A stretch of 64,000 bases of DNA from a virus. Under the pieces are notes generated by a model that was not told the DNA's origin, made no database searches, and saw only the letters and a program-made list of their open reading frames with translations. Of this stretch, positions 7,961 through 63,926 are shown in pieces; positions within the stretch are counted from its first letter, which is position 1, and every line of letters starts with the position of its first letter. The stretch lies in the IMG/VR virus record IMGVR_UViG_3300047491_001507. One strand, given 5' to 3'. The position numbers were made by a program, and so were the translations under genes.

Positions 7961-7964
7961 CGAG

Positions 7965-27272: not shown

Positions 27273-29504
27273 ATGAACGTGAATCCTGAAATAGTACGAA
27301 AAGCTTACAATTGTGCTGTGAGTTCTGACAATCGTTGTCCTGAATGGGAAGCAATCATTGCTACTGATGCATCTCACTCTTATAAATATGCTCTTAATCA
27401 TCTTGAAGGTCGTCGTTTTCTAGAAGGCGAAGCGGTAATTGCAAAAGACGCACAATGTGCCTTTTTTTATGCTAGAGATGTGATTGGTGGACGCTGGCCT
27501 GAAGCAGAAGAGGCAATTGCTACAGATGTACAATATGCCTTTTATTATGCTCGTAATGTGATTAAGGGTAGATTTCCAGAAGGCGAAAAGGCAATTGCCA
27601 CTGATGGTCATCTTGCTTTTTTATATGCTAAATTCACAGGAATGGATATTACTTTTGTTGAAAAACTTAAGTTTGCTAATCCAGCAGATGCTTATCGTTA
27701 TGCTTTCAATCATCCAGATAAGCGTTATCCTGAAGCGGAAGAGGTAATAGTAACAAATGCATATGTATCATATCTTTATGTCTGCAATGTTCTGAAAAGG
27801 CGTTGGGCAGAAGGTGAAGCGGTAATTGCAAAAAACGCACAAAATGCCTTTTTTTATGCTAGAGATGTGATTGGCGGACGCTGGCCTGAAGCAGAAGAGG
27901 CAATTGCTACAGATGCAAAATACGCCTGTTTGTATGCTATGGATGTAATTAAAGGGCGTTTTGCTGAAGGCGAACCAGCTATTGCTCAGAGTGCAGATTG
28001 GGCTTGGCTTTATGCTAAGAGCGTAATTAAGAGAAGATTTCCTGAAGCAGAAAAAGCAATTGCTCAGGTTAAATCTATTAATAGGGAATATTGTGATAAA
28101 TTCCCGTTGAAATTTGATAGTCCATCAAGTGCTTATCGTTATGCTATTGCCCACCCAAAGCAATGTTGTCCTGAAGTAGAAGATAAAATAGCAGAAAATG
28201 CCTACATGTCATATCTTTATGCTCTTCATGTTTTAAAATCTCGATTTCTTAAGGGAGAGAAAGCAATTGCTCAAGCAGCACCAACTGCTTATATTTATGC
28301 CAAAGACATTATTAAAGGTAGGTTTCCTGAGGCAGAACCTGCTATTGCTAAAGATGCATATTATGCATTTCTTTATGCTTTGCAGATAATTAAAGGACGT
28401 TGGCCCGAAGCAGAGCCAACAATTATCAAAAATGCGGAATGGGCTTATCGTTATGCCGAAAAAATAATAAAGGCACGTTGGCCTGAGGCAGAAGCAGTAA
28501 TTGCTAAAAGCTCACCTTGGGCTTATAATTATGCCGTAGATATGATTAAGGATCGTTGGCCTGAGGCAGAATCTACGATCCTAGCATCAGCAGATGCATC
28601 CAAATATGCCAATAACTTTAAATTAACAATTACGCTGGAAAAACCGAAATTTACAACGCCAGTAGAAGCTTATGGCTATGCTAGAGATATAGTGAAAGGT
28701 CGTTGTCCTGAAGCAGAGCCGATGATTGCTCAGGATGCACAGTTTGCTGCTCTTTATGCCAAGAGCATAATTCAGGGTCGTTGGCCTGAAGGCGAAAAGG
28801 TGATTGCTCAGGATGCACATTGGGCTTGTTTTTATGCTATAAATGTAATCAAAGCTCGTTGGCCTGAGGGCGAAAAAGCAATTGCTCAGGATGCACATTA
28901 TGCTTATAGATATATTAAATATGTGATAAAAGATCGTTGGCCTGAAGCAGAGCCGATGATTGCTCAGGATGCATATTACGCTTGTTTTTATGCTATGAAT
29001 ACAATCAAAAGCCGTTGGCCTGAAGGTGAAGAGGCAATTGCTACAGATTCGTATCTTTACAAGAAATATTGCAAGGAATTTTCAATAGCAGAAGGTTATA
29101 ACCCGAAATTAATGACTCCAGTAGAAGCTTATAGTTACGCTAAAGATGTGTTAAAAGGTCGTTGTTCCGAATGCGAAGCAACAATTATTCAAAGTCCAAT
29201 TTTTGCATATCGTTATGCTCAAGATGTGTTAAAAGGTCGCTGGATTGAGGCAGAACCAGTAATCGCTACTGATCCTGGCATTGCATATCTCTATGCAGAC
29301 AAGATAATTAGAGGAAGATTTCCTGAGGCAGAAGTAGAAATTTCACGATCTGTATTTGCCTCCAAATATGCTGCTCTTTTTGGATTGGAATTTGCTGGTT
29401 TTAAACCAGAATTGACAAAAAGTAAAGAATCTGTTACTTTGGATGAAATTCTGACAAGACTTGAAAATTTGGAATCAAAATTGCACAATATGTTTTTATG
29501 CTAA
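27273..29504 (+). CDS. 33-aa repeat family protein (about 20 repeats) with C-terminal coiled coil
   Basis: Iterated VIKGRWPEAEExIA units over 743 aa. Confidence 0.65.
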   Translation: MNVNPEIVRKAYNCAVSSDNRCPEWEAIIATDASHSYKYALNHLEGRRFLEGEAVIAKDAQCAFFYARDVIGGRWPEAEEAIATDVQYAFYYARNVIKGRFPEGEKAIATDGHLAFLYAKFTGMDITFVEKLKFANPADAYRYAFNHPDKRYPEAEEVIVTNAYVSYLYVCNVLKRRWAEGEAVIAKNAQNAFFYARDVIGGRWPEAEEAIATDAKYACLYAMDVIKGRFAEGEPAIAQSADWAWLYAKSVIKRRFPEAEKAIAQVKSINREYCDKFPLKFDSPSSAYRYAIAHPKQCCPEVEDKIAENAYMSYLYALHVLKSRFLKGEKAIAQAAPTAYIYAKDIIKGRFPEAEPAIAKDAYYAFLYALQIIKGRWPEAEPTIIKNAEWAYRYAEKIIKARWPEAEAVIAKSSPWAYNYAVDMIKDRWPEAESTILASADASKYANNFKLTITLEKPKFTTPVEAYGYARDIVKGRCPEAEPMIAQDAQFAALYAKSIIQGRWPEGEKVIAQDAHWACFYAINVIKARWPEGEKAIAQDAHYAYRYIKYVIKDRWPEAEPMIAQDAYYACFYAMNTIKSRWPEGEEAIATDSYLYKKYCKEFSIAEGYNPKLMTPVEAYSYAKDVLKGRCSECEATIIQSPIFAYRYAQDVLKGRWIEAEPVIATDPGIAYLYADKIIRGRFPEAEVEISRSVFASKYAALFGLEFAGFKPELTKSKESVTLDEILTRLENLESKLHNMFLC

Positions 29505-31217: not shown

Positions 31218-31233
31218 TGGAGAAGAAAAATAA

Positions 31234-31308
31234 GCCAGTGTAGCTCAAATGGAAGAGTCTCGTGTCATTGTGGCATGGGAGATGTTGGTTCGAATCCAAC
31301 CACTGGCT
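31234..31308 (+). tRNA. tRNA-like element (possible degenerate tRNA or tRNA remnant); anticodon arm non-canonical
   Basis: Exact 7-bp acceptor GCCAGTG/CACTGGC, D-arm TAGCTCAAATGGAAGAGT and T-arm GTTGG-TTCGAAT-CCAAC at correct tRNA spacing (75 nt), but the middle 25 nt fold into an 8-bp hairpin with a 5-nt loop. Confidence 0.45.
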
Positions 31309-31319
31309 TGGAGGAAAAA

Positions 31320-32512: not shown

Positions 32513-32694
32513 TGTCCAAAGAAAAGAAATGGTTGGAATACGCCCATCTTCATCCTGTAGAATGGAAATCCTACTTAGGTAGCTGTAATTGTTATGTTTG
32601 TGTGAAATATCGAGCAGATTTTGAACAGTGGCTAAAAAAACAAGACATTTCTCAAATTAATTCCATGAAATGGAAGGGAAATCGTGTCATCTAA
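32509..32694 (+). CDS. hypothetical small Cys-containing protein
   Basis: 61-aa ORF; ATGA overlap. Confidence 0.45.
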   Translation: MMSKEKKWLEYAHLHPVEWKSYLGSCNCYVCVKYRADFEQWLKKQDISQINSMKWKGNRVI

Positions 32695-32707
32695 AGGAGT
32701 TGAAGTC

Positions 32708-34048
32708 ATGAAATTTAAATCACTACAAGAAGCTTATAATCATGTTCTTGTTTATGGGCCTTCTCCTGAAGCAGAATCTGTCATTGCTACAAATTCAGCA
32801 TGGTCTTATGTTTATGCTCGTGATATAATTAAAGGCAGATTCCCTTTGGGCGAGGCAGCGATTGCCACAGATACAATCAGATCTTATGAATACGCTCTCA
32901 ATGTGCTTAAAGGTAGATTTCCTGAAGGCGAGAAAATAATTGCCACAAATCCACGGTGGTCATATGAATATGCTCTCAATGTGATTAAAGGCAGATTTCC
33001 TGAAGGCGAACCGGAAATTGCTGCAAGTAGTGTTTATGCTTGGCTTTATTCTAGAAGTGTTGGCTTGCTCAAACCGGAATTGAAATTTATGAAACCAGCA
33101 GAAGCTTACGATCATGCTAAAGATGTGGTAAAAGGTCGTTGTCCTGAAGCAGAAGTAGAAATTATTAAAAGTGCAGAATATTCTTATTATTATGCAACAA
33201 ATGTTTTGAAGTCTCGCTTTCCTGAAGGCGAAGCAACAATTGCTCAGGATGCACAATGGTCTTATCATTATGCTCTTTATGTTTTGAATGGGCGATTTCC
33301 GTTGGGCGAAGCAGTAATTATTCAAGATCCATTTTATGCATGTTACTATGCAGTAAATGTTATGAAAGATCGTTGGCCTGAAGCAGAGGCGACGATTTCA
33401 AGGTCTACTAACCTTGTCAGTAAATATGCAGATCAGTTTAAATTGGCGGTGACACTTGCTGACACACCGTTGAAATTTGCAACAATAAAAGAAGCTTATA
33501 GTTATGCTCAGAATCATCCAAGAGAACATTGTCCTGAAGCAGAAAAGATGATCGCTCAAGATGCTTCAACTTCTTATTTGTATGCTAGATATGTGATTAG
33601 AAAGCGTTTTCCAGAAGGCGAAGTAACAATTGCAAGAAACCCCTCTTCTGCTTATTATTATGCCAACGAAGTGATTGGTGGACGTTGGCCTGAATGTGAA
33701 GCAGAACTTGCTAAAAATGTACAATATGCTTATCTTTATGTTGTAAATATAATCAAGGGTCGTTGGTTTGAAGCTGAAGCAGCGATTGTTCAAAACCCAG
33801 AATATGCTTGCCTATATGCGATAAATGTTCTAAAGGCTCGTTGGCCTGAAGCAGAAGAAGGAATTTTGAAACATTCTGATCCTGTTCATGCTTATAAATA
33901 TGCTGAACATTTTAAATTGACATTCTCTAGTTTCATGCCGAAACCGAAATCCGAATTGACACTAAGTTCTGCAATTGATAAAATTGACACCATAGAAAAA
34001 CAAATAGCAAGTTTGGAAAAAAGACTTTCTAATTTGGAAGAACAATAA
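32708..34048 (+). CDS. 33-aa repeat family protein with C-terminal coiled coil
   Basis: AAGGAG SD before the ATG at 32708 (the track start at 32684 is a GTG); iterated VIKGRFPEGE units. Confidence 0.65.
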   Translation: MKFKSLQEAYNHVLVYGPSPEAESVIATNSAWSYVYARDIIKGRFPLGEAAIATDTIRSYEYALNVLKGRFPEGEKIIATNPRWSYEYALNVIKGRFPEGEPEIAASSVYAWLYSRSVGLLKPELKFMKPAEAYDHAKDVVKGRCPEAEVEIIKSAEYSYYYATNVLKSRFPEGEATIAQDAQWSYHYALYVLNGRFPLGEAVIIQDPFYACYYAVNVMKDRWPEAEATISRSTNLVSKYADQFKLAVTLADTPLKFATIKEAYSYAQNHPREHCPEAEKMIAQDASTSYLYARYVIRKRFPEGEVTIARNPSSAYYYANEVIGGRWPECEAELAKNVQYAYLYVVNIIKGRWFEAEAAIVQNPEYACLYAINVLKARWPEAEEGILKHSDPVHAYKYAEHFKLTFSSFMPKPKSELTLSSAIDKIDTIEKQIASLEKRLSNLEEQ

Positions 34049-39706: not shown

Positions 39707-39735
39707 TCGCCGTTCCTTGGAGCGGCGATTGTTAT
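39707..39735. terminator. possible bidirectional terminator at the convergent strand switch
   Basis: TCGCCG-ttccttggag-CGGCGA hairpin flanked by T-runs on both strands, between the last + gene and the first - gene. Confidence 0.35.
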
Positions 39736-41213
39736 TTTAATACCACAAATGTTACATCTTTGCCCTGCATGTCCTCTTGAGCATCCTCATAACTGTTACA
39801 AATCGGCTTTCCTGCTCGATTTAAAGAAGTGTTGATAAAACACTCATGTCCAGTTAATTTGCCGTATTCAACCAAAAGTTCATGTAGCCAAGGGTCTTTT
39901 TCTTTATAAACGACCTGTGGCCTTGATGAAAAATCACGATGCACTATGGCTGGTAAATATTGCTTGGCCATATCAGTACAAATACAACGATATTGCATGT
40001 ATTCGCCTTTGGGACCAATGAAATATTGATCAAAAGCTTCTGATGTCACTACAGGAGCCAAAGGACGATAAAACTCTCTCCCTTTTATGCCTTCTGAAAC
40101 AATTTTGAGGTTTTCTGCCTTGGCAGAAGCGAAAATAGATCTAAATCCCAAAGCTCTTGGCCCTGCTTCGCTTTTACCCCTCATTAAAGCTACAATTTTG
40201 CCCCTAGCAATGAGTTTGGCGATCTCTTGGGGTTCCTGTGCCCCTATTTGAGGCAAAGGCGTCTGAAGGGCATTAATGGCCGCAGAATTGATTTTGGGCC
40301 ACTTCTTATAAACATGGAAATAAGCAAGAGCAGCAGCACCTAAAGCAAGACCACTATCATTAATTGGCGGTCCAAAGACCAAGTCTTGAGTCATATTGTA
40401 AATCCTGGTGTTTAGCTCCAAAGCTAATGCAGTACCTCCACCAACAACCACTCCACGATTGCTGCCAAATTTTTCTATGTTTTCTTTGATATTGACCCAG
40501 ATTTGCTCAATAAGGAACTTGTAAAAACCAGCAATAAACTCCATATCGTTTGAATTTGGATTTTTGAACTCAATATAACACGGAACTATACTGTTCCAAT
40601 CATAAGAAACATTCAATAACTTCATGACATTTTTTGCATCCCACTCAATTGGGGGGATGTGTGGCAAATAACCAGCCAATCCCATGGCTTTTCCTGCCGA
40701 ATTATGTCCTAGAAGAGTGCAAATTGGAACACTTGAAGGGACAGGAAGGGCATCTTCTATTTTGTAAAAGCCTTTTTTGTTTATTACGCCTACAAGAGAA
40801 GCTTTATTGGGTTGAGTAGGATCGATGCCATATCCACAGCCATCATAGGCTAAAAAAAGCCTTTCTTTGTCATCTGGTCGATAAAGCCAAGAAGAAACAG
40901 CATGTGCTAGATGATGATCTACGACAAGATTGAATTTGGAGTCAGGAAAAAGATGGTGAGGAGATTTTAGGTATCTAATTAAAGATGGATCGTATTTAGG
41001 AGTTGGATAATTCTCTTCGCCTAAAGAAGTGATAGCAGTAACATAGTTTCCGTTTAATAAATCTGGAAAAGCGTTGAGAATGGGATCGGGGGTATGGTAA
41101 TGGTTTTTATTTCTTGGAAAGAATCTTTCAGCTTGAGCGTAAAATTCTAACTCCGAATCGTTAAAAATAGCAATGGAAACGTCATGTTTACCGTGATATC
41201 CTATAAATCTCAT
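39732..41213 (-). CDS. carbamoyltransferase of the NodU/CmcH/TobZ family
   Basis: VVDHHLAHAVSSWLY (the DHHLAHAASAF motif) and C-terminal GPRALGFRSIFAS (GPRALGNRSIL motif). Confidence 0.75.
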   Translation of the reverse strand: MRFIGYHGKHDVSIAIFNDSELEFYAQAERFFPRNKNHYHTPDPILNAFPDLLNGNYVTAITSLGEENYPTPKYDPSLIRYLKSPHHLFPDSKFNLVVDHHLAHAVSSWLYRPDDKERLFLAYDGCGYGIDPTQPNKASLVGVINKKGFYKIEDALPVPSSVPICTLLGHNSAGKAMGLAGYLPHIPPIEWDAKNVMKLLNVSYDWNSIVPCYIEFKNPNSNDMEFIAGFYKFLIEQIWVNIKENIEKFGSNRGVVVGGGTALALELNTRIYNMTQDLVFGPPINDSGLALGAAALAYFHVYKKWPKINSAAINALQTPLPQIGAQEPQEIAKLIARGKIVALMRGKSEAGPRALGFRSIFASAKAENLKIVSEGIKGREFYRPLAPVVTSEAFDQYFIGPKGEYMQYRCICTDMAKQYLPAIVHRDFSSRPQVVYKEKDPWLHELLVEYGKLTGHECFINTSLNRAGKPICNSYEDAQEDMQGKDVTFVVLK

Positions 41214-42019
41214 AGCAGTTCGTCAGCTTGTTTGTTGTCTAATGTAAATTTCTTCATTAAATGGCCTTTGATGGCTTGGTCAGATAGTCCTTGTTTTCTA
41301 AGCAATTGAATGAATTCTTGTGGTGTAAACTCTTGTTTTGGTTTAGACAGTGGTTTGCTTGCCTGTTTTTTGGCAGAATCTACAATTCTCTGAGTTGTTT
41401 GGGCGATATTTGCCTCAACATGATCTTGATGTCTTCCAGATTGATCTGCCCACATAATAATCAGAAGCAGCTTAATTCTTTGATTATTGATAATCTTTCC
41501 ATTGACAAAAAAGTCTTTAAGGAACTTTTTGGAGAAAATATTGCCACAAAGATGCATGTGGTTTTCTACTAGCCAATCAATTAGGGCTTCATGCTGGTGA
41601 TAAATTTGCTTGACCGCTGGATCAAAATCCTCTGAAACATACGCAATAAGAGGCTTGAAATGCTTAGATTCTTGATGTCCATAAGAGGTAATTTTGCCAT
41701 CTCGTTCTTCTGTACGAGTAGCTTTGGCAATATCATGCAAGAAAGCAGCCAGGGTCAATATGTCTTTTTCTTCATCAGATATATTGAAGTCTATATCTGA
41801 AATAACAGGACACAATGGATGATTGGGGTCTTTTTGAATATTTTGCAGCTTCAACCTTACTGGCTCTAAAGCAGCAACAACCATTTTGGTGTGGGTGAGT
41901 ACATCCCCTTCTTTATGGTGTTTTGCGTCTTGTTTGATATTGTCCAACAATTGGAGAAATTTACCCCCCAATTGGGAAATATCAATACTTTCTTGTAATA
42001 GCCAGTTTTTAAATTTCAT
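41210..42019 (-). CDS. HD-domain phosphohydrolase
   Basis: HHKEGDVLTHT...LAAFLHDIAKA, an H...HD metal-binding pattern. Confidence 0.6.
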   Translation of the reverse strand: MKFKNWLLQESIDISQLGGKFLQLLDNIKQDAKHHKEGDVLTHTKMVVAALEPVRLKLQNIQKDPNHPLCPVISDIDFNISDEEKDILTLAAFLHDIAKATRTEERDGKITSYGHQESKHFKPLIAYVSEDFDPAVKQIYHQHEALIDWLVENHMHLCGNIFSKKFLKDFFVNGKIINNQRIKLLLIIMWADQSGRHQDHVEANIAQTTQRIVDSAKKQASKPLSKPKQEFTPQEFIQLLRKQGLSDQAIKGHLMKKFTLDNKQADELL

Positions 42020-42035
42020 ATGTAATATATAGAGT

Positions 42036-43019
42036 ATGGAAGTTCAAAAACTCACATGTCGTTGGGTAAGAAGCGGATTGACCTTCGGAATAGATAAACT
42101 ACATGTTTGCTGTATAACTCATCATACAAATCTAGGTTTTGTTCCGATTTGCGAATATCATGGTGGAGATTTGCCAATTGACAAAATAATGCTTAAAAGA
42201 CAAGAATTATTGGTGCAAAACGTAATTGATGGATATGATTCCTGTAAGGGATGTATTTTTCAAAATGCTGAGCCATTCAAGTCAGAATATCTATTTGATC
42301 AGTTGAATTTTTCTCATTATACGCTTTGCAATCTTAGATGCAAGTACTGCTACATAGGGATTGACTGGAATAAAGGTGGAAACCTTGGGTTGAGGAAAAA
42401 CTATTACGATGTAATGCCAGCTTTAGAACAATTGACAAAAAACAACTGGTTGGACCCTCGATCTGCTATTTATTGGGGTGGTGGAGAGCCAACATTATTG
42501 CGTAGATTTGATGAGATTCTGGGTCTTCTTTTGGATTATGGAACATACAACTTCTTGAACACCAATGGAACGGTATTTTCTCAAGCAATATTTGATAAAT
42601 TAGGACAAGACAATCTGCACATAATATATGGAATTGACAGTGGACTAAATGAGACATACAAACAAATGAAAGGCAAAGACTTTCTAGATCAAGTGTTTGA
42701 GAATTTAAAAAGATATGTTAGTGTACATGGCGATTCAATCATTGTAGCGAAATATATTATAACAGATATTAATCATAGCATTCCTGAACTAGAAGAATTT
42801 TTTAGAAGAGTTTTGGAGACAGGGGTCAAAAATCTTTATATCGATTTAGATTCAACAATAAATGCAACCCAAGAGCATATAGATGCAATGGAATATTTGA
42901 GAGATTTATTTAAAGAGACAGATGTTGATGTAAAGTTTTGTGGCTGTGGAGTAAATGCTCTACACAACCAATCTATTCATTACCATGGCGACAAAATCTT
43001 ACCTAGCTTAATTGTGTAA
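42036..43019 (+). CDS. radical SAM enzyme with Cys-rich N-terminal extension
   Basis: CNLRCKYCY (CX3CX2C) and YWGGGEPTLL; the only sizeable + strand gene inside the - block. Confidence 0.7.
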   Translation: MEVQKLTCRWVRSGLTFGIDKLHVCCITHHTNLGFVPICEYHGGDLPIDKIMLKRQELLVQNVIDGYDSCKGCIFQNAEPFKSEYLFDQLNFSHYTLCNLRCKYCYIGIDWNKGGNLGLRKNYYDVMPALEQLTKNNWLDPRSAIYWGGGEPTLLRRFDEILGLLLDYGTYNFLNTNGTVFSQAIFDKLGQDNLHIIYGIDSGLNETYKQMKGKDFLDQVFENLKRYVSVHGDSIIVAKYIITDINHSIPELEEFFRRVLETGVKNLYIDLDSTINATQEHIDAMEYLRDLFKETDVDVKFCGCGVNALHNQSIHYHGDKILPSLIV

Positions 43020-43470
43020 ACAATTCTTTCAAATAGCCTTTTGCTGCTTCGTAACTGCCAGGAGCAGTTTTTTCAGAGTTTCCTGCGACATTTAGTGTTT
43101 TAATGTTGTTTTCGTTTAGCCAGTTGACCACATCTTCTACAGGTCTGGGATTTGCCAGATCTACATCAATGTAAGGTTTTTTATAGTATTTAATGGCTTC
43201 AAATGTGCAGATTTCTCCAGGGCTTGAGAAATCAAAAGCCAAACGGATTGTTCCATCACTATTTTTAACATTTAGCTTTGTTCTAGGAACATAGCTGCTG
43301 GATGTATGGGTGGTGCATCCGAATAGGTCTTTGTATTCTGGTTTACAACCATCTAAGGTTTTAAAACCATAAGGCATTAATCCTCCGGTTCTAAATCCAA
43401 ATTCTTTGGCTGTTTCTAATCCAGCAAAATCACTGCCTGTCTGACCGCCTGATATTACTTTTTTCAACAT
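43003..43470 (-). CDS. SLOG-superfamily / MoCo-carrier-like (YpsA-like) protein
   Basis: ISGGQTGSDFAGLETA...GG..P and LNVAGNSEKTAPG match the MoCo-carrier/SLOG signature. Confidence 0.55.
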   Translation of the reverse strand: MLKKVISGGQTGSDFAGLETAKEFGFRTGGLMPYGFKTLDGCKPEYKDLFGCTTHTSSSYVPRTKLNVKNSDGTIRLAFDFSSPGEICTFEAIKYYKKPYIDVDLANPRPVEDVVNWLNENNIKTLNVAGNSEKTAPGSYEAAKGYLKELFTQLS

Positions 43471-44183
43471 TATTTTTCCTCACATTTTAATAATTCATTT
43501 AGTAGCACTTTGTAAACATGTTCATTGCCAGGAGCACATTTCGGTTCTTTTGACCCATAACCATAAAATTCACAGATTGCTCTAGCAACTCCCAGCGAAA
43601 CGTTAAGGAAAGCATGAGTTATTAGCAAAACATCGATTTTTTCCCAGTTTTTGTCCAAGAATTTTTTGATTAGGGATGCATGATGTTCAGAAAACGGATT
43701 CGGTCCAGCGAATTCTCTGGCACCAGTAACACAAAACTTTAGTGTATCAAAATTATTATCTGCACTTAAATTGTAACCAAAATATATTCTTGCTACCTCG
43801 TGCGGATCTGCATCCTCATGCCAAAATCGCATATTGATGTGTGCCCAAGGTTTATCACATTTAAATTCTTTGGTTTGTTTTGGAGTCAAACACAGAGTTT
43901 TGTGAATGACAGGTGTTCCCACATATCGTTCCACTGGCACAATTATTTGATTGCCAGACTCGTCAGCAACACAAATTTGATCATGTTCTGCCATGTGTGT
44001 CAATAAATCATTTTCAAAAATTTCATCCATATTGGTCTCTTTTTTTCTTCTTTGATATTGATGATGAAAGGGACAATGATATCCGCTGACATGGTCCGAT
44101 AAAAGACAAATCGATTCATCTGGCTTAGTGGTTTTAATTGTTATTTTTTTTGGTGTTTCAGCCGACATATCATTCTTTCTCAT
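43470..44183 (-). CDS. hypothetical protein (several His/Cys clusters)
   Basis: 237-aa ORF; an alternative ATG 15 nt inside the track start. Confidence 0.5.
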   Translation of the reverse strand: MRKNDMSAETPKKITIKTTKPDESICLLSDHVSGYHCPFHHQYQRRKKETNMDEIFENDLLTHMAEHDQICVADESGNQIIVPVERYVGTPVIHKTLCLTPKQTKEFKCDKPWAHINMRFWHEDADPHEVARIYFGYNLSADNNFDTLKFCVTGAREFAGPNPFSEHHASLIKKFLDKNWEKIDVLLITHAFLNVSLGVARAICEFYGYGSKEPKCAPGNEHVYKVLLNELLKCEEK

Positions 44184-44685
44184 CCCACCAACGTTTTCCA
44201 GAGTAATATCCTGCCTCGTCCATCGCTTTTGCTACAATCTTGCACTCTTCACAACGACAAGTTTCTCCTGGCATTATACCCGATTCAAGAACCACATGAG
44301 CATTTGCATGCATATCCATCTGTGTTTTTTCAAGTTGTTCTCGCAATTGTTTATTATCCTCTGCCATTTGTTTCATAGTTGCCCGATTGCCAGCAACTAT
44401 TGACCACAATCGATGATGGGGTTGTGGTTCGGATATTTCTTCTTCGCCGTCTAGCTTTTCCGCAACTTCAATAATATGTTCTAGTTGTTTAATGTAGTCT
44501 TCGACATAAATCTTTTCTTCTCTATTGTATTTGACTGATATTACTTCTAAGTCTAGACATTTGGCTAATTTTTTAATAGCCCATCTGGCTCTGGCAAAGG
44601 AACCCTGTCCTGCATAGTCCTGATAGTCATATTCAAACCAAGCATTAAGCAAATCTAAACATTCTTTATATTCTTCAGGGTTCAC
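44170..44685 (-). CDS. hypothetical protein with C-terminal CRCEEC motif
   Basis: 171-aa ORF. Confidence 0.5.
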   Translation of the reverse strand: MNPEEYKECLDLLNAWFEYDYQDYAGQGSFARARWAIKKLAKCLDLEVISVKYNREEKIYVEDYIKQLEHIIEVAEKLDGEEEISEPQPHHRLWSIVAGNRATMKQMAEDNKQLREQLEKTQMDMHANAHVVLESGIMPGETCRCEECKIVAKAMDEAGYYSGKRWWDEKE

Positions 44686-44700
44686 TATTCCGCTCTCTTT

Positions 44701-44910
44701 CTAAGGCACAAAAACAATAAAATCGTAATAAGTCAACATACTAACAAATATAATTGTAGCCGATATAATAAAAACTGCGATTGTGTGTTTGGTTCTTGGA
44801 TGATACGGATATGCAATAACTGCTGTAACTAACATCATTACTACAAAAAGCACTACAAATAGTAGTAGCCAGAAAATGACAGAGAGAATTGGTTGAGTAT
44901 GAATAACCAT
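44701..44910 (-). CDS. small membrane protein (2-3 TM)
   Basis: Highly hydrophobic 69-aa ORF. Confidence 0.45.
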   Translation of the reverse strand: MVIHTQPILSVIFWLLLFVVLFVVMMLVTAVIAYPYHPRTKHTIAVFIISATIIFVSMLTYYDFIVFVP

Positions 44911-45002
44911 TTTTAAGAACGCTCCTTGGAACCTCTACTTTTAAATATTAACAAAAACACGATTGCCACCATCATCAAAACATTCAACTCGTTGATAACA
45001 TC

Positions 45003-45191
45003 TCAAAACCCTTCTACTCTGATCTTGAAATCGTAAACCGGTCCCAGTTGATCAGGAATATCAGTCGATTTATACACTGGCACTTCTACTGTTTTAGTTG
45101 TGCCATCTGCATTTTTAACTTCAATTTTCATAAATCTTACCGGAGCAACTGTTTTAGTTGCGTCATCTGCATTTTTAACTTCAATTTTCAT
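45003..45191 (-). CDS. small protein with an internal tandem duplication
   Basis: MKIEVKNADDATKTV...MKIEVKNADGTTKTV, from a ~57-bp DNA tandem repeat. Confidence 0.4.
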   Translation of the reverse strand: MKIEVKNADDATKTVAPVRFMKIEVKNADGTTKTVEVPVYKSTDIPDQLGPVYDFKIRVEGF

Positions 45192-45219
45192 AATTAATTC
45201 CTTTCATTTTCAAACATTC

Positions 45220-46008
45220 TCATATATCTGTTCCTGCTTCGGTTGCCAATGGCAAGCCAAGGACTGATTTGAACGATTCTTTCCATCTTATCTTAGGTTC
45301 GTCCTTGAGAATATTGTAAATCTCATGAACACGTTCGTCAGTCTGTCCCATTTCAATACGAGCAATTTCTTGAGGATCAGTGTCTGGTTGTACTCTGGTT
45401 CGAACATGGTTCATTTTGCCGATCCAGAAAGTGCCTGTAATCCATGGTTCTAGTTTGTGAAACAATTCAACGACATTCTTGCTGTCTAGCATTGGTTCCA
45501 CGCTGACACTTGTCTGAAACCCCTGCTCCCAAGCATATTTTAGACAATTGAAACGTTCAGCATAAGTAGGTGCCCCTGGCTCCCAATAGGCTAAAATATT
45601 ATCATCATAAGCTCCGATGGTGAATCGGAATTGAATTTGATCTTTTTGTTCAGCGAATTTTTCACAAATAGCTTTAATCACTTCCATGTACGGTTTAGAA
45701 ACTAACAGGATGTTATTGCCTGCTTTTGTTAATCGCTGAATGGCTTCTAGAGTTTCGGGCAGTATGTCTGGTGTAAGATCATGGGCCGTGGGAAACATTA
45801 CCACGCCATCATATTTTTTACTGAATCCAGTAAAAGGTCTTTCCTTGAGTTGATTATAAGTTGTTCCCCATGTTTCTGAATCACATTTGCCTAATCGAAC
45901 TGTACGTTCACGAGCATAGCAGTATCGACAACGATGAACGCACCCCAAATGAATGTTGAGTGAAACTTTTGCCCACTCCAAGGTGCCACTGATTTTTTTC
46001 TTTGTCAT
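45220..46008 (-). CDS. radical SAM protein, SplB/COG1533-like (spore-photoproduct-lyase-type DNA repair fold)
   Basis: GCVHRCRYCYAR (CX3CX2C followed by Y-A). Confidence 0.65.
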   Translation of the reverse strand: MTKKKISGTLEWAKVSLNIHLGCVHRCRYCYARERTVRLGKCDSETWGTTYNQLKERPFTGFSKKYDGVVMFPTAHDLTPDILPETLEAIQRLTKAGNNILLVSKPYMEVIKAICEKFAEQKDQIQFRFTIGAYDDNILAYWEPGAPTYAERFNCLKYAWEQGFQTSVSVEPMLDSKNVVELFHKLEPWITGTFWIGKMNHVRTRVQPDTDPQEIARIEMGQTDERVHEIYNILKDEPKIRWKESFKSVLGLPLATEAGTDI

Positions 46009-46163
46009 GATTGTTTCCTAAGACTTTTTTCCATTACAATGATGGTCAAAATAGCAATTATTGCTGTAATCCAGGCTAAGGTTTCGTGAAAGCGACCTTT
46101 TGATATGCTTATGCTTAAACATATTAGGCCGCATACAACACTAATATAATATAATATCATCAT
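46005..46163 (-). CDS. small membrane protein (53 aa)
   Basis: ATGA overlap with the radical SAM gene; hydrophobic; below the track cutoff. Confidence 0.35.
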   Translation of the reverse strand: MMILYYISVVCGLICLSISISKGRFHETLAWITAIIAILTIIVMEKSLRKQS

Positions 46164-46186
46164 CTTTAATCTGCAATTTCTAGTAC

Positions 46187-46384
46187 TTAATTCCTTTCCT
46201 TAAACTTTCTAATAATATCTAAGTTGAATATATCAGCATAATTTTGTGAAGGTATTGAATCCGAAAGAATCGTTGCTTCAGCTTCAAGCCAACGTCTTTT
46301 AAGTGTGTTTTTAGCATACAGATAAGCATAAGTTGGACTTGAAGCAATTATCGCTTCACCTTCAGGAAATCTGCCAAACAACAC
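46187..46384 (-). CDS. 33-aa repeat family, short or truncated copy
   Basis: Two repeats plus the family C-terminal ADIFNLDIIRKFKERN motif, downstream of the full-length copy. Confidence 0.45.
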   Translation of the reverse strand: MLFGRFPEGEAIIASSPTYAYLYAKNTLKRRWLEAEATILSDSIPSQNYADIFNLDIIRKFKERN

Positions 46385-46406
46385 ATCTCTAGCGTAAAAA
46401 ATTCTG

Positions 46407-47009
46407 TCATGTTGTTATTCTTTCCGCAAACTTCCTGATAACATCCAAGTTAAATTGCTTGGCGTAACAACGAGTACAATCATCACTTGTAAAAATTACC
46501 TTTTCTGCTTCAGGCCAACGTGCTTTAATTATTTCTTTGGCATATCTGACGGCACAATGTGGATCTTTCGCAATTGCCGCTTCGCCTTCAGGAAATCGAT
46601 CTTTTATTATCTTAATCGCATATTCACAAGCATAATATGCACTGGTGGCAATTACTGCTTCGCACTTAGGCAAACGTTCTTGAACTACTTCTTTGACGTA
46701 ATTATAACACCATTCTGGATTTTTTAGGATTGCTGGTTCGCCTGTGAGCCAACGTCCTCGCACAATATTCTTGGCATAAAAAAAAGCATATTGCGGATTT
46801 TTCGCAATAAGCTCTTCTGCTTCAATAATTTCACGAAAATGAGTGCCATTTTTGATTATGTAATTATAAGCCTCATATGCCGTTGCAAATTCAATTCTAC
46901 TGACACCGAGTATATCACCGAGTATATTATCGAACTGCCGACCCAGATCCTGATCTCCATCTTCAGCAAGCCTCTTAACCAGAAGAGCAATCACTTCGCT
47001 AATTTTCAT
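46407..47009 (-). CDS. 33-aa repeat family protein with N-terminal ISEVIALLVKRLAEDGD module
   Basis: 200-aa ORF with 4-5 repeats. Confidence 0.6.
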   Translation of the reverse strand: MKISEVIALLVKRLAEDGDQDLGRQFDNILGDILGVSRIEFATAYEAYNYIIKNGTHFREIIEAEELIAKNPQYAFFYAKNIVRGRWLTGEPAILKNPEWCYNYVKEVVQERLPKCEAVIATSAYYACEYAIKIIKDRFPEGEAAIAKDPHCAVRYAKEIIKARWPEAEKVIFTSDDCTRCYAKQFNLDVIRKFAERITT

Positions 47010-47038
47010 GTTGTTGTCCCTTTCAAGGATAAACTCAC

Positions 47039-47362
47039 TTATTTGTACAAATCGCCACTATCAATAAGATCTTGAAGTTCTTGAGATTTTTTGGATACGT
47101 ATTTTATATCGACCGCCACTAGGCAATTTTGTCTATAATCCAGAATGAATACTATGCCATTGCCATGGTTTACAATATATCCCAAACAAACTTTTGGGTA
47201 TTGCAGATCAATATAATAATAAGATAATCCTATTACATCTTCCCCATCTTCTATAAGATCCCCTAAAGAAGGCTCTTTGTATTTTTCTGCTTTTGGTGTT
47301 TTAATTGGCTTTGCTTGTTTTGCTTTAATCTTAGCCATGATTTGACTCTTTTCTAAATACAT
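47039..47362 (-). CDS. hypothetical protein
   Basis: 107-aa ORF; overlaps the radical SAM gene's stop. Confidence 0.5.
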   Translation of the reverse strand: MYLEKSQIMAKIKAKQAKPIKTPKAEKYKEPSLGDLIEDGEDVIGLSYYYIDLQYPKVCLGYIVNHGNGIVFILDYRQNCLVAVDIKYVSKKSQELQDLIDSGDLYK

Positions 47363-48351
47363 TCTTCAATAGGAATTGTGTCAAACGGACGGGTTCCAGA
47401 AAGAAGTGCATTCCCACAGGTAATTCTTCCTTCATCTTCAGCACGAGAAGCAATAAATACTAATACATCGTATCCTGCCTTTTTCAGTGCTTCCTCATGT
47501 TCTGTGTACGGATGGTATGTTGTATAATCTCCACATGTTTCAATACCCCATGAATTACATGAAAATGTCTTGTGCATGGGAGTTAATTTGCAAATAAACT
47601 TATCAGGATCAAAGTATTTCAGTAGGATATATGGATCAATTTCATAACCCGCAACTGCAAAATTCAAGGTAATCTTGCGGCCAAGAACGTCCAAATCTTC
47701 AACAATCTTGGCTATGTCTTCTAGACTACAAGCGTTTCCGTTAAACATCTCCTCTCGTTCTTTTTCATTCGTGGAATTGATGCTTAATTGCAATCCTGCA
47801 TCGCCACTCATGACAGTATTCTTAAACTGCATCCACTCGTGAATAAAAGAACTGAGGTTGCGATTGTTCTTTGGCATCATCGTAGATACCACTTGGTGAA
47901 CTACATCGAATTTGTAGCTCAACATTACATTCATATGTTTGGCTACAGCAAGCACTGATGGATTAAAGGTGGGCTCCCCCATTCTGGCATAATGAATGTT
48001 GAGCCGTTTTCCATGATTTACATCAGGATGTAAACTAAGACCAGCACTCACTTGTTCGATCATATCAGAACCAGTGGCATTTCTTCCTGGCCCGACATGT
48101 GGAACGTCACAAAATCTACAACCAATTGAGCATCCATATTGTGTGCTAATGGTCACGACCCATTTCTCTTCCAAAGGAAGCATTTGGGTGTGCAAAACAG
48201 GTTTTGGGCTACGAGTTAGGCCCATAGCGTCACACTTCAGATTGACTTCTTTGCCATAATCACCAATTGACAGGCACTCCAATAGACCATACTTTCCTTG
48301 AATGACAAGAATATCGCCAGTGGGAACACTAAATTGTTCGTGAATTTTCAC
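47353..48351 (-). CDS. radical SAM enzyme of the RlmN/Cfr family (rRNA/tRNA adenosine C-methyltransferase-like)
   Basis: STQYGCSIGCRFC (SxQxGCxxxCxFC), YARMGEPTFN (MGMGEPLxN) and C-terminal RITCGNAL (the DIDAACGQL Cys). Confidence 0.65.
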   Translation of the reverse strand: MKIHEQFSVPTGDILVIQGKYGLLECLSIGDYGKEVNLKCDAMGLTRSPKPVLHTQMLPLEEKWVVTISTQYGCSIGCRFCDVPHVGPGRNATGSDMIEQVSAGLSLHPDVNHGKRLNIHYARMGEPTFNPSVLAVAKHMNVMLSYKFDVVHQVVSTMMPKNNRNLSSFIHEWMQFKNTVMSGDAGLQLSINSTNEKEREEMFNGNACSLEDIAKIVEDLDVLGRKITLNFAVAGYEIDPYILLKYFDPDKFICKLTPMHKTFSCNSWGIETCGDYTTYHPYTEHEEALKKAGYDVLVFIASRAEDEGRITCGNALLSGTRPFDTIPIEECI

Positions 48352-48640
48352 AATTTAATCCTTGCTGTCCAAAATAATAAGTTCTTCCATGATGACTTTT
48401 CTCGTTTATTACAATCTTGTATGTTCTGGCGTAAGGATGAAGAGCAATGGCTTCTTTGTAAAATGATATAAGATCTTTTTGAACAGAATCATACACAACA
48501 GCATAATTACATAAATAAGCGGTTACTGTTGCTCTTAAAAGCGTTGCTTCTTCTAAGACCTTTGCCTGCGTAAACTTGACTGGTAGTAACAAAGATGCCA
48601 AACCGCCCAACACTGTTTTCAGAAGATTTCTACGATTCAT
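48329..48640 (-). CDS. putative Tat-secreted protein (paralog of 50354..50833)
   Basis: MNRRNLLKTVLGGLASLLLPVKFTQA is a twin-arginine signal; ORF trimmed to this Met. Confidence 0.55.
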   Translation of the reverse strand: MNRRNLLKTVLGGLASLLLPVKFTQAKVLEEATLLRATVTAYLCNYAVVYDSVQKDLISFYKEAIALHPYARTYKIVINEKSHHGRTYYFGQQGLNCENSRTI

Positions 48641-48881
48641 TTGATTTTTTTCTTTCTGAAAATTTGATGTTGATATCCAGATTGAATTCTTCAGCATAAA
48701 GACCGGCATACATGTAAGGAAGCAATAATTCGCCTTCAGGCCAACGATCTTTGATTACATGTCTGGCATACATGTATATCCATCCTCTGTCCTCTAGAAT
48801 CATCTTTTCTGCTTCCGCACAACGTCCATACTTGTAAGCATAATCATAGGCTTCCATTGCTGTTTCAAATTTTTTTGTCAT
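48630..48881 (-). CDS. 33-aa repeat family, short copy
   Basis: 83 aa with ~1.5 repeats plus the EEFNLDINIKFSERK C-terminal motif. Confidence 0.5.
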   Translation of the reverse strand: MTKKFETAMEAYDYAYKYGRCAEAEKMILEDRGWIYMYARHVIKDRWPEGELLLPYMYAGLYAEEFNLDINIKFSERKKSNES

Positions 48882-49104
48882 TACTTAATATTCTTTCTAC
48901 GGTACATTTTTGACAAATCAAGCCACGAGGTTTTCCACCAGTTAAATGGCGGATTCTCAACTTGCCTTCCTTGATCGGCTTATCTTTGGTATACCAGCCA
49001 GGAAGAGGTTCGTTTGTTGTCGTCACTTGTCCGACAAATGTTGCTTGTCCTTCAATTTTTTCTTTACAGATCAGACAAATTTCACTTACTTGTGTAACAG
49101 CCAT
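48865..49104 (-). CDS. zinc-ribbon protein (possibly a degenerate HNH-like finger)
   Basis: CLICKEK...RHLTGGKP...LICQKC. Confidence 0.45.
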   Translation of the reverse strand: MAVTQVSEICLICKEKIEGQATFVGQVTTTNEPLPGWYTKDKPIKEGKLRIRHLTGGKPRGLICQKCTVERILSNDKKI

Positions 49105-49217
49105 TGATTATTTTTTCTGCTCTTAGAAAACGACTTAGAAAACGAGCATCAAGAACATTTATAGCATACTCACAAGCATGTCTTGCATTAGTCGCAATAA
49201 CTGCTTCCCAGCAAGAG
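49105..49217 (-). pseudogene. degraded fragment of a 33-aa repeat family gene, interrupted by an inverted-repeat element
   Basis: The reverse strand translates to ...CWEAVIATNARHACEYAINVLDARFLSRFLRAEKI* with no start codon. Confidence 0.35.
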
Positions 49218-49323
49218 AATTGTATCACGAGGGAGATTTCGTTACAACTGCATCCGACAGAGGTTTCCCCGTGTACTTAGGGGGCGTGACGGCGTTCCCT
49301 AATATCTCCCTCGTGATACAATT
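49218..49323. mobile_element. MITE-like inverted-repeat element (20-bp perfect terminal inverted repeats around a 66-bp GC-rich core)
   Basis: AATTGTATCACGAGGGAGAT ... ATCTCCCTCGTGATACAATT; the core is ~58% GC in an AT-rich context and sits at the break point of the degraded repeat gene. Confidence 0.5.
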
Positions 49324-49348
49324 TTTGTATTTTCATCAGAAAATTCCT

Positions 49349-49570
49349 TTAGTAGTAATCGAAGTAATATGTTCCAAGTTCTACTCGTTCACCAAGTAAT
49401 GTAAGTTTTTTCTTGAGATTTGCTATCTCATTTTCCAGGCAGATGATTCGACATTTTTCCGATTGTGTCACCCTACCAGAAGTAGTATACCGCTTGGTTT
49501 TACATTTGTAAACACAAAATTTTTCGTTTACGAGTACAGAATTACTACCGCATTTAGGACATTTTCCCAT
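49349..49570 (-). CDS. C4 zinc-ribbon protein
   Basis: CPKCGS...CVYKC...CRIIC. Confidence 0.5.
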   Translation of the reverse strand: MGKCPKCGSNSVLVNEKFCVYKCKTKRYTTSGRVTQSEKCRIICLENEIANLKKKLTLLGERVELGTYYFDYY

Positions 49571-49850
49571 CGGATTGCCTCAATTCTGACAGTAATTGTT
49601 TGCCGCTTTCGGTTAATTTCCAGTGACATGCCCATTTGTCGTTTCTAGGATCAGGAAATTGTTCAATGAAACCATGTTTTTCTGCTTCTGTTAATTGATG
49701 TTCCTGCATGGCAAAAGCATCAATTTGGTCTTGTTCACAGAACCATACATCGTAACTGCCACGATAAATGTCTTTGCGTCCGCTACTTTTTCCTTCTAAG
49801 GATTCAATTTTTTCTAAAACCCAATACATCCAATAAAATTCAGAAGTCAT
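49554..49850 (-). CDS. hypothetical protein
   Basis: 98-aa ORF. Confidence 0.5.
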   Translation of the reverse strand: MTSEFYWMYWVLEKIESLEGKSSGRKDIYRGSYDVWFCEQDQIDAFAMQEHQLTEAEKHGFIEQFPDPRNDKWACHWKLTESGKQLLSELRQSDGKMS

Positions 49851-50353
49851 TTACTGACCCAACCCCTTAAAAGATCTACTTCTATACGAAGAGAATTTAT
49901 ATCCATAATAAGTTCCTTGGTTTTTTCATGAACCTCATTACGAATATTATTTATTTGAGTGTTTAAATCTCTATGTAATAAGAGAGTGTATCTGGCAACA
50001 AAATTAAATTGTCCATGTTTGAGAATTGCCTCCTCCCCTTCTGGCCAACGTCCTTTTATTACTTCTATTGCGTATAGACAAGAATAATCTGGATGAGTGG
50101 CAATTACTGCCTCGCCTTCAGGGAATCGGCCTTTAAGTATTTTTTTTGCATAATAATAAGCAAGCACAACATTTTGAGCAATCGCTGCTTCGCCTTCAGG
50201 GAATCGGCCTTTAAGTATTTCACCTGCATATCGAAAGGAGTATTCTGGATCAGTGGCAATTTTGGACTCAAGTTCGGGACAACATCCCTTAACTTCATTT
50301 AAAACGTATATGTAAGCTTCTTTTGCTGTTTCAAATTCAGGTACTTCGCTCAT
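49847..50353 (-). CDS. 33-aa repeat family protein with C-terminal coiled coil
   Basis: 3 repeats, then a DLNTQINNIRNEVHEK coiled coil. Confidence 0.6.
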   Translation of the reverse strand: MSEVPEFETAKEAYIYVLNEVKGCCPELESKIATDPEYSFRYAGEILKGRFPEGEAAIAQNVVLAYYYAKKILKGRFPEGEAVIATHPDYSCLYAIEVIKGRWPEGEEAILKHGQFNFVARYTLLLHRDLNTQINNIRNEVHEKTKELIMDINSLRIEVDLLRGWVSK

Positions 50354-50833
50354 TTAAATTGCCCCATTAGTTTGTTTTGGCCATTCATACATCCTGCCTG
50401 GATGTGTGAACCGTGCAGCTTCTTGAAATTCTACACGACGACAGTTTTCGTTTTTCTTTGTAAATGTGATGGACTGTTGTTGTGAAAGCTGGGCATCAAA
50501 ACAATCAGTTTTTAGATTTTTTCCTTCTTCTTTTAATCTATTCACCTGATTTAAAGGTACTTCCAGTATTACAACACGAAACGTATGGGCAAGATAGCAG
50601 TCTTCCATGGCTTTTTTAAAGAATGATGCGAGATCATTATGTGTGCAATCACTTATTACATGAAAATCTTTAGCACACCAGACTACCTCGCCGTCCTTAA
50701 GATAATGTCCTTGAGAATAATAGCATATTATTCTTCCTTTTAAAGCTACTGGTCTTGCCTGTGCGAACTTGATCGGCAACAACAAAGATGCCAAACCACC
50801 CAATACTGTTTTCAGAAGATTTCTACGATTCAT
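50354..50833 (-). CDS. putative Tat-secreted protein (paralog of 48329..48640)
   Basis: MNRRNLLKTVLGGLASLLLPIKFAQA. Confidence 0.55.
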   Translation of the reverse strand: MNRRNLLKTVLGGLASLLLPIKFAQARPVALKGRIICYYSQGHYLKDGEVVWCAKDFHVISDCTHNDLASFFKKAMEDCYLAHTFRVVILEVPLNQVNRLKEEGKNLKTDCFDAQLSQQQSITFTKKNENCRRVEFQEAARFTHPGRMYEWPKQTNGAI

Positions 50834-50835
50834 TT

Positions 50836-51390
50836 TTACCCCCATCTAACATGAACATTGTCACGAAGATAATTAATTTCTTCATGAATTCTCTCTATAT
50901 CATTTTGAAAATCGTTCATTTGATCACATAAAATCCGCAGCAAAAACAACGAATATTTAGCAGCTAAATCTGGTTCCGTATTAATTGCTGCTTCGCCTTC
51001 AGGAAAACGTCTCTTTGTAATTTCGGTCGCATATGCATAACTCTTCCCTGCATCTTTAGCAATTGCGTTTTCGCCTTCTGGGAAGTGTCCTCTCATTATT
51101 TCTATAGCATAACAGTAAGCATACCAAGCATCTTGGCCAATTGCATATTCGCCTTCATAATATCTGCCTTTAATTATGTCAACGGCATACCAATAAGCAT
51201 ATTGTGGGTCTTTAGCAATTGCCTTTTCGCCCTTAGGAAATCTACCTTTAAGTATATTCTTGGCATACTCATAAGCACTTTTAGCATCTCTAGCAATTTT
51301 TGACTCAAGTTCAGGACAACGTCCCTTGACTTCATATAAAACGTGTGTGTAAGCTTCCCATGCTGTTTTAAATTGAGACGATTTAGTCAT
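50836..51390 (-). CDS. 33-aa repeat family protein
   Basis: 4 repeats plus a C-terminal coiled coil; near-duplicate arrangement of 49847..50353. Confidence 0.6.
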   Translation of the reverse strand: MTKSSQFKTAWEAYTHVLYEVKGRCPELESKIARDAKSAYEYAKNILKGRFPKGEKAIAKDPQYAYWYAVDIIKGRYYEGEYAIGQDAWYAYCYAIEIMRGHFPEGENAIAKDAGKSYAYATEITKRRFPEGEAAINTEPDLAAKYSLFLLRILCDQMNDFQNDIERIHEEINYLRDNVHVRWG

Positions 51391-55037: not shown

Positions 55038-55047
55038 CTATTTAAAA

Positions 55048-55092
55048 AAGCCCATTTCGAACAAAAACTATCGCTTGAAATGGGCTTTTTGG
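55048..55092. terminator. bidirectional rho-independent terminator
   Basis: AGCCCATTTC ... GAAATGGGCT 10-bp stem with T-runs on both strands. Confidence 0.55.
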
Positions 55093-63356: not shown

Positions 63357-63926
63357 TCAAAATCCCTCCTGATTAGCAAACATCACAGCCCAATGCCAAC
63401 CATTTTCAGTAGGCTCATATCGAGCAACAGGCGATCCCTCTTCCCCAAAATGAGGCTTAATTCTGGTATATGGCTCCTGAGGTGCAACATCATTACTAAA
63501 AACCATAATCTTGCTGCCTCTCGGACAATTTGGAAACAAAACCCAAAAGGCTGTAAAATAATGCCCTTTATATACCTTCAAAACCTCAAATACCTCTTCG
63601 TTATGCTCAATCATCTGTTCGTGACCCATAACAAGCTTTCCTTTAATTTTTAAAAAATTCATGTACATACGATAATAGAAAAAATTGCCCCGCATAATTG
63701 CTGGCTCTCCAAATGGAAATCGTGCCTTAAGCACATTAATGGCATACCAGCAAGAATATTGGTCATTCTGTGCAATTACCTTTTCGCCTTCATACCAACG
63801 ACCTTTAATTATATCCTTGGCATAATAATACGAAAGCCTTGCATCTTGAGCAATTTTCTCCTCTCCATCTAACCAACGACCTTTAACTACGTCTTTTGCA
63901 TGGAAATAAGCCTCTTCTGGAGTCAT
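63357..63926 (-). CDS. 33-aa repeat family protein (2-3 repeats) fused to an unrelated C-terminal domain
   Basis: MTPEEAYFHAKDVVKGRWLDGEEKIAQDARLSYYYAKDIIKGRWYEGEKVIAQ. Confidence 0.55.
   Translation of the reverse strand: MTPEEAYFHAKDVVKGRWLDGEEKIAQDARLSYYYAKDIIKGRWYEGEKVIAQNDQYSCWYAINVLKARFPFGEPAIMRGNFFYYRMYMNFLKIKGKLVMGHEQMIEHNEEVFEVLKVYKGHYFTAFWVLFPNCPRGSKIMVFSNDVAPQEPYTRIKPHFGEEGSPVARYEPTENGWHWAVMFANQEGF

Follow-up and report, generated by a model that had tools for sequence, protein, structure and literature searches.

The question raised by this locus is how a 106-bp palindromic element came to lie directly beside a fragment of a repeat-family gene, and whether it represents, as an earlier note had proposed, a small MITE-like element that inactivated a member of that family. 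The window analysed here is the whole 64,000-nucleotide stretch of viral DNA, and its sequence marks it as phage-like, with three tRNA genes, a Thg1-type gene and densely packed small genes. Three proteins adjoining the element are listed for a 306,208-bp JGI/IMG contig, from which the window corresponds to about one fifth (21%) of a huge phage genome of at least 306 kb. The element has the following parts.

49218 to 49323, no strand assigned: whole palindromic element, 106 bp
49218 to 49237, no strand assigned: left arm AATTGTATCACGAGGGAGAT, 20 nt, 40% G+C
49238 to 49303, no strand assigned: core, 66 nt, 54.5% G+C
49304 to 49323, no strand assigned: right arm ATCTCCCTCGTGATACAATT, perfect reverse complement of the left arm
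49222 to 49319: 98-bp element in the transposon reading, flanked by AATT at 49218-49221 and 49320-49323

The 106-bp element with perfect 20-bp inverted ends was located exactly where it had first been reported, with arms complementary at 20 of 20 positions (100%) and a spacing of 66 nt. When up to three mismatches were allowed the arm occurred at only these two sites in the window, compared with none expected (100 shuffles), while in mononucleotide-shuffled versions of the window (n = 60) the longest perfect inverted repeat with a loop of at most 200 nt measured 11–16 nt. The perfect 20-bp arms set against these shuffles place the inverted repeat beyond chance, and it is the longest in the window (loop of at most 200 nt), the runner-up being 14 bp at 55045-55090. 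The base composition of the element is foreign, as its core has 54.5% G+C in comparison to 37.5% for the window and falls within the top 0.5% of 66-nt stretches. The value of about 58% previously given for the core was too high for 49238-49303, and 59% was reached only in the G+C-richest 66-nt stretch (49250-49315), which extends into the right arm. Over the whole region the sequence was identical to that of an independent short-read contig (L001; Logan SRR27007106, recorded in three samples), indicating that the element sequence is real and not an assembly artefact, and the element-bearing allele was the sole allele recorded in samples containing the phage.

Folding predictions were strong on both strands. 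The minus strand of the element gave -48.1 kcal/mol (z = -5.9 versus shuffled controls) and the plus strand -54.2 kcal/mol (z = -7.7), and the core on the plus strand includes an inner 11-bp hairpin (UUAGGGGGCGU/GCGUUCCCUAA), three of whose pairs are G-U and correspond to A-C mismatches on the minus strand. The earlier note had also allowed for a processed structured RNA, for which no positive evidence emerged: Rfam covariance models gave nothing at gathering score over the element and, at E values up to 10, only a meaningless miRNA-hairpin match (18 bits versus a threshold of 70), and ARAGORN likewise reported nothing over the element. Other structured-RNA and intron-like readings were examined and rejected. 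No reverse transcriptase lies nearby, as a retron or DGR would require, the stem lacks the bulges of a BHB intron, and an upstream CUGAUGA is not followed by the GAAA core of a hammerhead. An intrinsic terminator, with its short G+C-rich stem, loop of 3–8 nt and U tract, was also rejected, since the loop of the element is 66 nt and a U-rich tail occurs on the antisense strand only; a scan of 48000-50500 found no such terminator.

With respect to features expected of MITEs, open frames in the element extend over only 20–36 codons and lack homologues, which is in keeping with a small noncoding element (50–800 bp), and terminal inverted repeats of 20 bp, or of 16 bp if AATT is counted as target duplication, lie above the expected minimum (10–15 bp). 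The bases immediately outside the 20-bp arms are AAA and CTC and form no direct repeat. At the arm tips AATT (or AT) is a possible target-site duplication within the MITE range of 2–10 bp, and an alternative parse gives 16-bp terminal inverted repeats GTATCACGAGGGAGAT flanked by duplicated AATT. As AATT is palindromic, this candidate duplication is indistinguishable from four further inverted-repeat bases.

The sequence adjoining the element belongs to a repeat family that is much expanded in the window.

49082 to 49217, minus strand: repeat-family fragment, one 26-aa repeat and the start of a second, ending in FSCWEAVIATNARHACEYAINVLDARFLSRFLRAEKIINGCYTSK and a stop codon
49122 to 49145, no strand assigned: tandem duplication, CTTAGAAAACGA twice, perfect, 12 nt, in frame, inside the fragment
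7938-8798, 25121-26881, 27273-29504 and 32684-34048, plus strand: family members
46407-47009, 48630-48881, 49847-50353, 50836-51390 and 63357-63926, minus strand: family members

Membership of the fragment in this family was confirmed by tblastn (E = 4e-8 to 27327-27440, in addition to dozens of weaker repeat matches), and the repeat length of 33 aa proposed beforehand gave way to a period of 78 nt, or 26 aa. The family repeat has a consensus of roughly E-x-x-I-A-x-D-x-x-Y-A-Y-x-Y-A-x-x-V-I-K-G-R-F-P-E-G and reaches up to about 28 units in a 743-aa member. Neither a stop nor a frameshift interrupts the fragment itself, which overlaps the start of a 79-aa gene (ATG 49104), and its 12-nt tandem duplication produces RFLS-RFLR, the duplicated residues also being written LSRF/LRAE. 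Pfam matches of the family were weak only (Phage_FRD3 and HTH_35), and homologues of the family (P0003-P0017) were found in other metagenomic phage-like contigs.

The relationship between the element and the reading frame of this fragment involves four further features.

49334 to 49349, minus strand: SD-like AAGGA (49349-49345), 8-nt spacer and ATG start (49336-49334)
49277 to 49279, minus strand: in-frame TAA inside the element, ending the frame from ATG 49336 after 19 aa (MKIQKLYHEGDIRERRHAP and stop)
49219 to 49247, minus strand: promoter-like site, TTGTAA, 17 nt, TG-n-TACAAT, reading outward into the fragment and the downstream genes
49324 to 49336, plus strand: T-rich run TTTGTATTTTCAT directly after the stem, resembling a terminator tail and also the complement of the first codons of the small frame

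The frame had been thought to break off at the edge of the element, which did not prove to be the case, as the frame of the fragment stays open for 17 codons into the element, up to the TAA at 49279-49277, and an in-frame ATG lies at 49336, 13 nt upstream of the element on the same strand. AAGGA and this ATG are found directly downstream of the TAA stop of a 73-aa gene on the minus strand. SD-like 4-mers precede 77 of the 129 ORF starts (60%) in comparison to 11% of all ATGs in the window, an enrichment that makes ATG 49336 probably a genuine start, and its context suggests that it is likely the start of a small ORF that the element interrupts. The beginning reads ATG AAA ATA CAA A|AA TTG TAT, with the element entered after 13 nt, and the single TAA is the only stop between ATG 49336 and the repeat fragment in the shared frame. 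After that stop the same frame continues via the right arm (in the reading direction) into the family repeat, as VHGETSVGCSCNEISLVIQF|SCWEAVIATNARHACEYAINVLDARFLSRFLRAEKIINGCYTSK up to the stop. In-silico removal of all 106 nt shifted the frame, and removal of 102 nt with one AATT kept yielded an intact 50-aa ORF beginning MKIQKFSCWEAVIATN; these 102 nt correspond to one copy of AATT and the 98 bp of the element in its parse with 16-bp inverted ends. Agreement of frame between the ATG and the fragment would arise at random in one case out of three. The promoter-like site at 49247-49219 has 9 of 12 matches and an extended -10, which is a weak consensus match, and 12 sites of such quality occurred in 2.5 kb compared with 6.3 expected.

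Searches for further copies were performed across several collections, the scans of which relied on exact words, and in the phage itself they covered the 64-kb window (about 21% of a genome of about 306 kb). Word-7 blastn with the element gave only chance matches of at most 12–14 nt in the window, and about 180 kb of related phage loci showed neither similarity to the arms or core nor a comparable long inverted repeat. No match was obtained in IMG/VR with exact and gapped arm/core patterns, in GTDB genomes or JGI metagenomes with the gapped arm pattern, or in INPHARED and PLSDB by blastn. Several candidates were followed up and discarded. The single match to a relaxed 10+10 pattern in IMG/VR (L051) is a pair of divergent ribosome-binding sites matched by chance; a core 20-mer found in GTDB in three G+C-rich MAGs has matches that end at 20–21 nt; and a 17-mer of the arm in JGI metagenomes gave 35 isolated matches, approximately the chance number, with no true partner arm or core similarity. 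None of three loci with an apparent partner arm at the right spacing was element-like, two of these (L034 and L039) being the same sequence. At the protein level, concatenated translations of the element's open frames had no real match among 5.8 billion proteins, and a 73-aa plus-strand ORF spanning the element gave, among 1.84 billion representatives, one chance match to an unrelated repeat protein that lies mostly outside the element. The earlier note had also named a transposase target or a homing site as possible. No transposase or IS carrying the ends of the element is present in the window, so that a cognate transposase expected of a MITE was not found there, and the neighbouring zinc-ribbon ORFs matched no transposase family; the 73-aa zinc-ribbon ORF was considered as an IS1595-type transposase N-terminus and discarded, as Pfam returned generic zinc-ribbon noise only. 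The multi-copy test suggested in the earlier note (BLAST against this and related genomes) thus gave the outcome that the note had named as refuting: the element is single-copy in the window, in the roughly 180 kb of related loci and in every collection searched, the window being about 21% of the genome. For this reason the element is labelled MITE-like and not a demonstrated MITE.

The element is situated inside a block of tightly packed minus-strand genes, which are arranged in the order of transcription as follows.

Before the element, minus strand: 184-aa family protein, 163-aa TAT-signal protein, 168-aa family protein, 98-aa protein, 73-aa zinc-ribbon protein
After the element, minus strand: repeat fragment, 79-aa zinc-ribbon protein, 83-aa family protein, 126-aa TAT-signal protein, radical SAM protein

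On either side of a 2.2-kb mosaic segment with the element lies one copy of a direct repeat of 81 bp (48562-48642 and 50755-50835, 88% identical). The repeat codes for the twin-arginine signal peptides in the 126-aa and 163-aa proteins, and short-read contigs are interrupted close to each of its copies. The only close relative found (L010/L011) has 87–92% nucleotide identity in the flanking genes, and there an unrelated module of 158 bp replaces the 325-bp module of the window that includes the element (49429-49105).

L010 897-1054 (Logan SRR29543822): replacing module of the relative, 158 bp, with a 47-aa ORF MVLDIEITLNRFGFYKPAENKLQIGFVRLSFWRGMKKWAISYEINWKR

In the window, the slot of this 158-bp module contains the last part of the 73-aa gene together with the element and the fragment; the 163-aa and 168-aa genes are also missing from the relative, as is most of the 98-aa gene. 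More distant IMG/VR relatives have only the radical SAM gene in common. A clean empty site was not available, because the closest relative carries an unrelated module at this position and the whole 325-bp surround is missing from it; in IMG/VR neither the predicted empty junction ATGAAAATACAAAAATTCTCTTGCTGG nor a 20-mer of the fragment was found. Just downstream of the element lies a cluster of modification-type enzymes (39732-48351).

39732-41213: carbamoyltransferase
42036-43019, plus strand: radical SAM protein
43003-43470: cpYpsA-domain protein
45220-46008, minus strand: radical SAM protein
47353-48351, minus strand: radical SAM protein

The last of these is 50% identical to a radical SAM protein of Bacteroides phage Versailles.

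Taken together, the anatomy of the element, the signs of a recent event and the documented occurrence of rare single MITE copies in phages (PMC11602168) make a solitary, probably dead, non-autonomous MITE-like insertion, recently acquired in a hypervariable gene-cassette region of a huge phage, the best explanation, which we put forward as a tentative one. A recent event is indicated by the undecayed fragment and the perfect arms, and since neither the window nor about 180 kb of related loci holds a comparable inverted repeat, the hairpin is not of the usual regulatory type of this lineage. We propose that a small family gene (50 aa, beginning MKIQKFSCWEAVIATN, with one 26-aa repeat) was struck at an AATT site, where the 98-bp element would have inserted with duplication of AATT. 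The insertion would have added 102 nt, or 34 codons in frame including the one TAA, and translation from the ATG would now end after 19 aa, a truncation at codon 20. The downstream repeat unit is probably no longer made, as GTG 49228 lacks a ribosome-binding motif. Once transcribed, the 20-bp stem would fold in the mRNA into a hairpin of very high stability, possibly a target of RNase III, and the 3' end of the element may supply an outward promoter (49247-49219). This copy is probably immobile, as no partner transposase is encoded nearby. We infer the transposition itself, the AATT duplication and any RNA effect from this arrangement. Accordingly, the earlier proposal that a MITE-like element inactivated a family member is partly supported: the in-frame ATG with its SD-like motif and the ORF regained on removal of 102 nt strengthen the view of an insertion into a gene, and the mobile, multi-copy part of the proposal is unsupported by any available data.

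Known families offer partial parallels to such an insertion. Correia elements of Neisseria (104–158 bp, with 26-bp inverted ends and a TA duplication) and the RUP element of Streptococcus pneumoniae (107 bp) belong to families whose members number from tens to hundreds per genome and whose transposase is known or inferred. The present element resembles them in its size of about 100 bp, its long terminal inverted repeats, its noncoding nature and the stable hairpin predicted when it is co-transcribed, and also in that its ends may carry outward promoter-like sequence and that a short palindromic target duplication is possible; it differs in its lack of sequence similarity to them and in its occurrence in a phage, where it is a single copy for which the collections searched contained no relative. 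Rickettsia palindromic elements are multi-copy, contain no stop codons and are translated within the host protein. These are likewise palindromic elements of about 100–150 bp inserted in frame within protein-coding genes, whereas the element described here is single-copy in the sequences searched and carries a TAA. A further parallel is given by the MITEs of phage genomes (vMITEs), which are rare, often single copies and presumed to be host-derived (Nadal-Molero et al., NAR 2024, PMC11602168). Single copies in phage genomes are documented but rare, with the families living in the host, and vMITEs are defined by their match to multi-copy host MITE clusters (PMC11602168). The element is likewise a rare single copy in a phage genome, but no host or other match for it was found in the genomes and metagenomes searched, and among known kinds of element it would rank at most as a new, orphan representative.

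Other interpretations of the palindrome can be considered against this reading. An unlikely one is that it constitutes a cis-acting regulatory cassette native to the phage, at the RNA or DNA level, in which a hairpin would direct RNase III processing or stability of the polycistronic minus-strand mRNA and the genes for the 79-aa, 83-aa, 126-aa and radical SAM proteins would be transcribed anew from the promoter-like sequence of the 3' arm. The fold is very stable, the element lies in the one stretch of some size in the packed minus-strand block that has no convincing gene, and TTGTAA-17-TGnTACAAT reads outward from it; the minimal RNase III substrate is a perfect duplex of at least 20 bp, which the predicted 20-bp duplex would satisfy. 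T4-type phages provide a model in the PeSL (promoter-early stem-loop) cassettes of their hyperplastic regions, which are present many times per genome and conserved among relatives, and the likeness consists in a stem-loop that is accompanied by promoter-like sequence and placed between small genes where the genome is mosaic and changes fast. Such cassettes recur, however, whereas this element is single-copy in the window and is not conserved, since neither the closest relative nor any related locus has it. Its architecture, a 20-bp stem around a multi-branched loop of 66 nt, differs from that of the phage's own terminator hairpin, the promoter match is weak, and a start 13 nt after an SD-preceded ATG, in frame with a gene fragment, would be unexpected for an intergenic signal. 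We think it likewise unlikely that the element is instead a rearrangement scar, formed when illegitimate or microhomology recombination or template switching captured foreign G+C-rich DNA with an inverted duplication, having neither mobility nor function. Uniqueness is what such a scar would predict, and the surroundings are suited to it: the 2.2 kb bounded by the 81-bp direct repeat is a recombination mosaic, modules are swapped at the same position in the relative, the 12-nt tandem duplication lies 75 nt away, and ATACAA occurs three times near the left end (direct at 49330-49325, inverted in the left arm and direct in the right arm). Against this, a template switch that places perfect 20-bp repeats exactly around 66 nt of unrelated DNA appears contrived, the core matched nothing in any collection searched that would trace its source, and a neat multiple-of-three insertion with symmetric ends is what a transposase would more typically produce.

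A small antisense RNA gene on the plus strand, of about 110 nt and ending in the 20-bp stem and a U-rich tail in the manner of an intrinsic terminator, is very improbable. The plus strand does fold better than the minus strand (-54.2 versus -48.1 kcal/mol), the three G-U pairs of the inner 11-bp hairpin work on the plus strand only and the stem is followed there by UUUGUAUUUU, but no promoter-like site occurs within 700 nt upstream on that strand, the terminator scan gave no canonical site, Rfam gave no match even at E = 10 and there is no conservation, while the U-rich tail is the mere complement of the A-rich start codons. Least credible, and in our view extremely so, is recoding, whereby ribosomes would skip the 102-nt insertion by hopping from CAA 49327-49325 to CAA 49222-49220, or the mRNA hairpin would be excised and the ends rejoined, and a protein of 49–50 aa would still be made. 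The bypass gap of T4 gene 60 is 50 nt and those of mitochondrial 'byp' elements are 27–55 nt. The locus shares with these a noncoding insertion within an ORF, a hairpin at the take-off site and matched bounding codons, as both CAA codons are in the same frame and follow AUA. These in-frame AUA-CAA hexamers lie 105 nt apart, one just ahead of the stem and the other at its 3' end; the fragment is undecayed, and a tRNA-Gln(UUG) is encoded by the phage. The matched hexamers are nevertheless an automatic result of the arm sequence and the A-rich flank. The gap of 102 nt is twice that of gene 60, the take-off codon is followed by AAA and not by a stop, only four codons precede the take-off site so that no upstream nascent-peptide signal is possible, and relatives offer no comparable case. 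If skipping did occur, it would exceed every known programmed translational bypass in length and be the second case in a phage.

Should the MITE-like insertion derive from the host, its ends and core would serve as a sequence tag that could link an uncultured huge phage to that host when a genome sequence of the latter becomes available, and it would add to the few transposon insertions known in phage genomes. The element would also exemplify how gene cassettes of hypervariable regions are knocked out or rewired, and it would be of little importance if it were unique junk or an ordinary hairpin.

Several further features of the window were recorded during this analysis.

326-479 and 31233-31309: tRNA-Arg(TCT), tRNA-Lys(TTT) and tRNA-Gln(TTG)
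683-1654: HD phosphohydrolase
5365-6225: Thg1-like tRNA-His guanylyltransferase
55045-55090: canonical bidirectional terminator-type hairpin, AAAAAGCCCATTTC, 18 nt, GAAATGGGCTTTTT, with a 14-bp stem and short loop

The hairpin at 55045-55090 is the only other inverted repeat of at least 14 bp in the window and is also present in a contig (L012) from another sample. The Thg1-like tRNA-His guanylyltransferase had its best matches in uncultured phages of 485–635 kb. A 369-aa protein (10022-11131) showed an unusual pairing of a flavoprotein domain (PF02441, E = 2.5e-30) with a below-threshold match to M23 peptidase (E = 5.6e-5).
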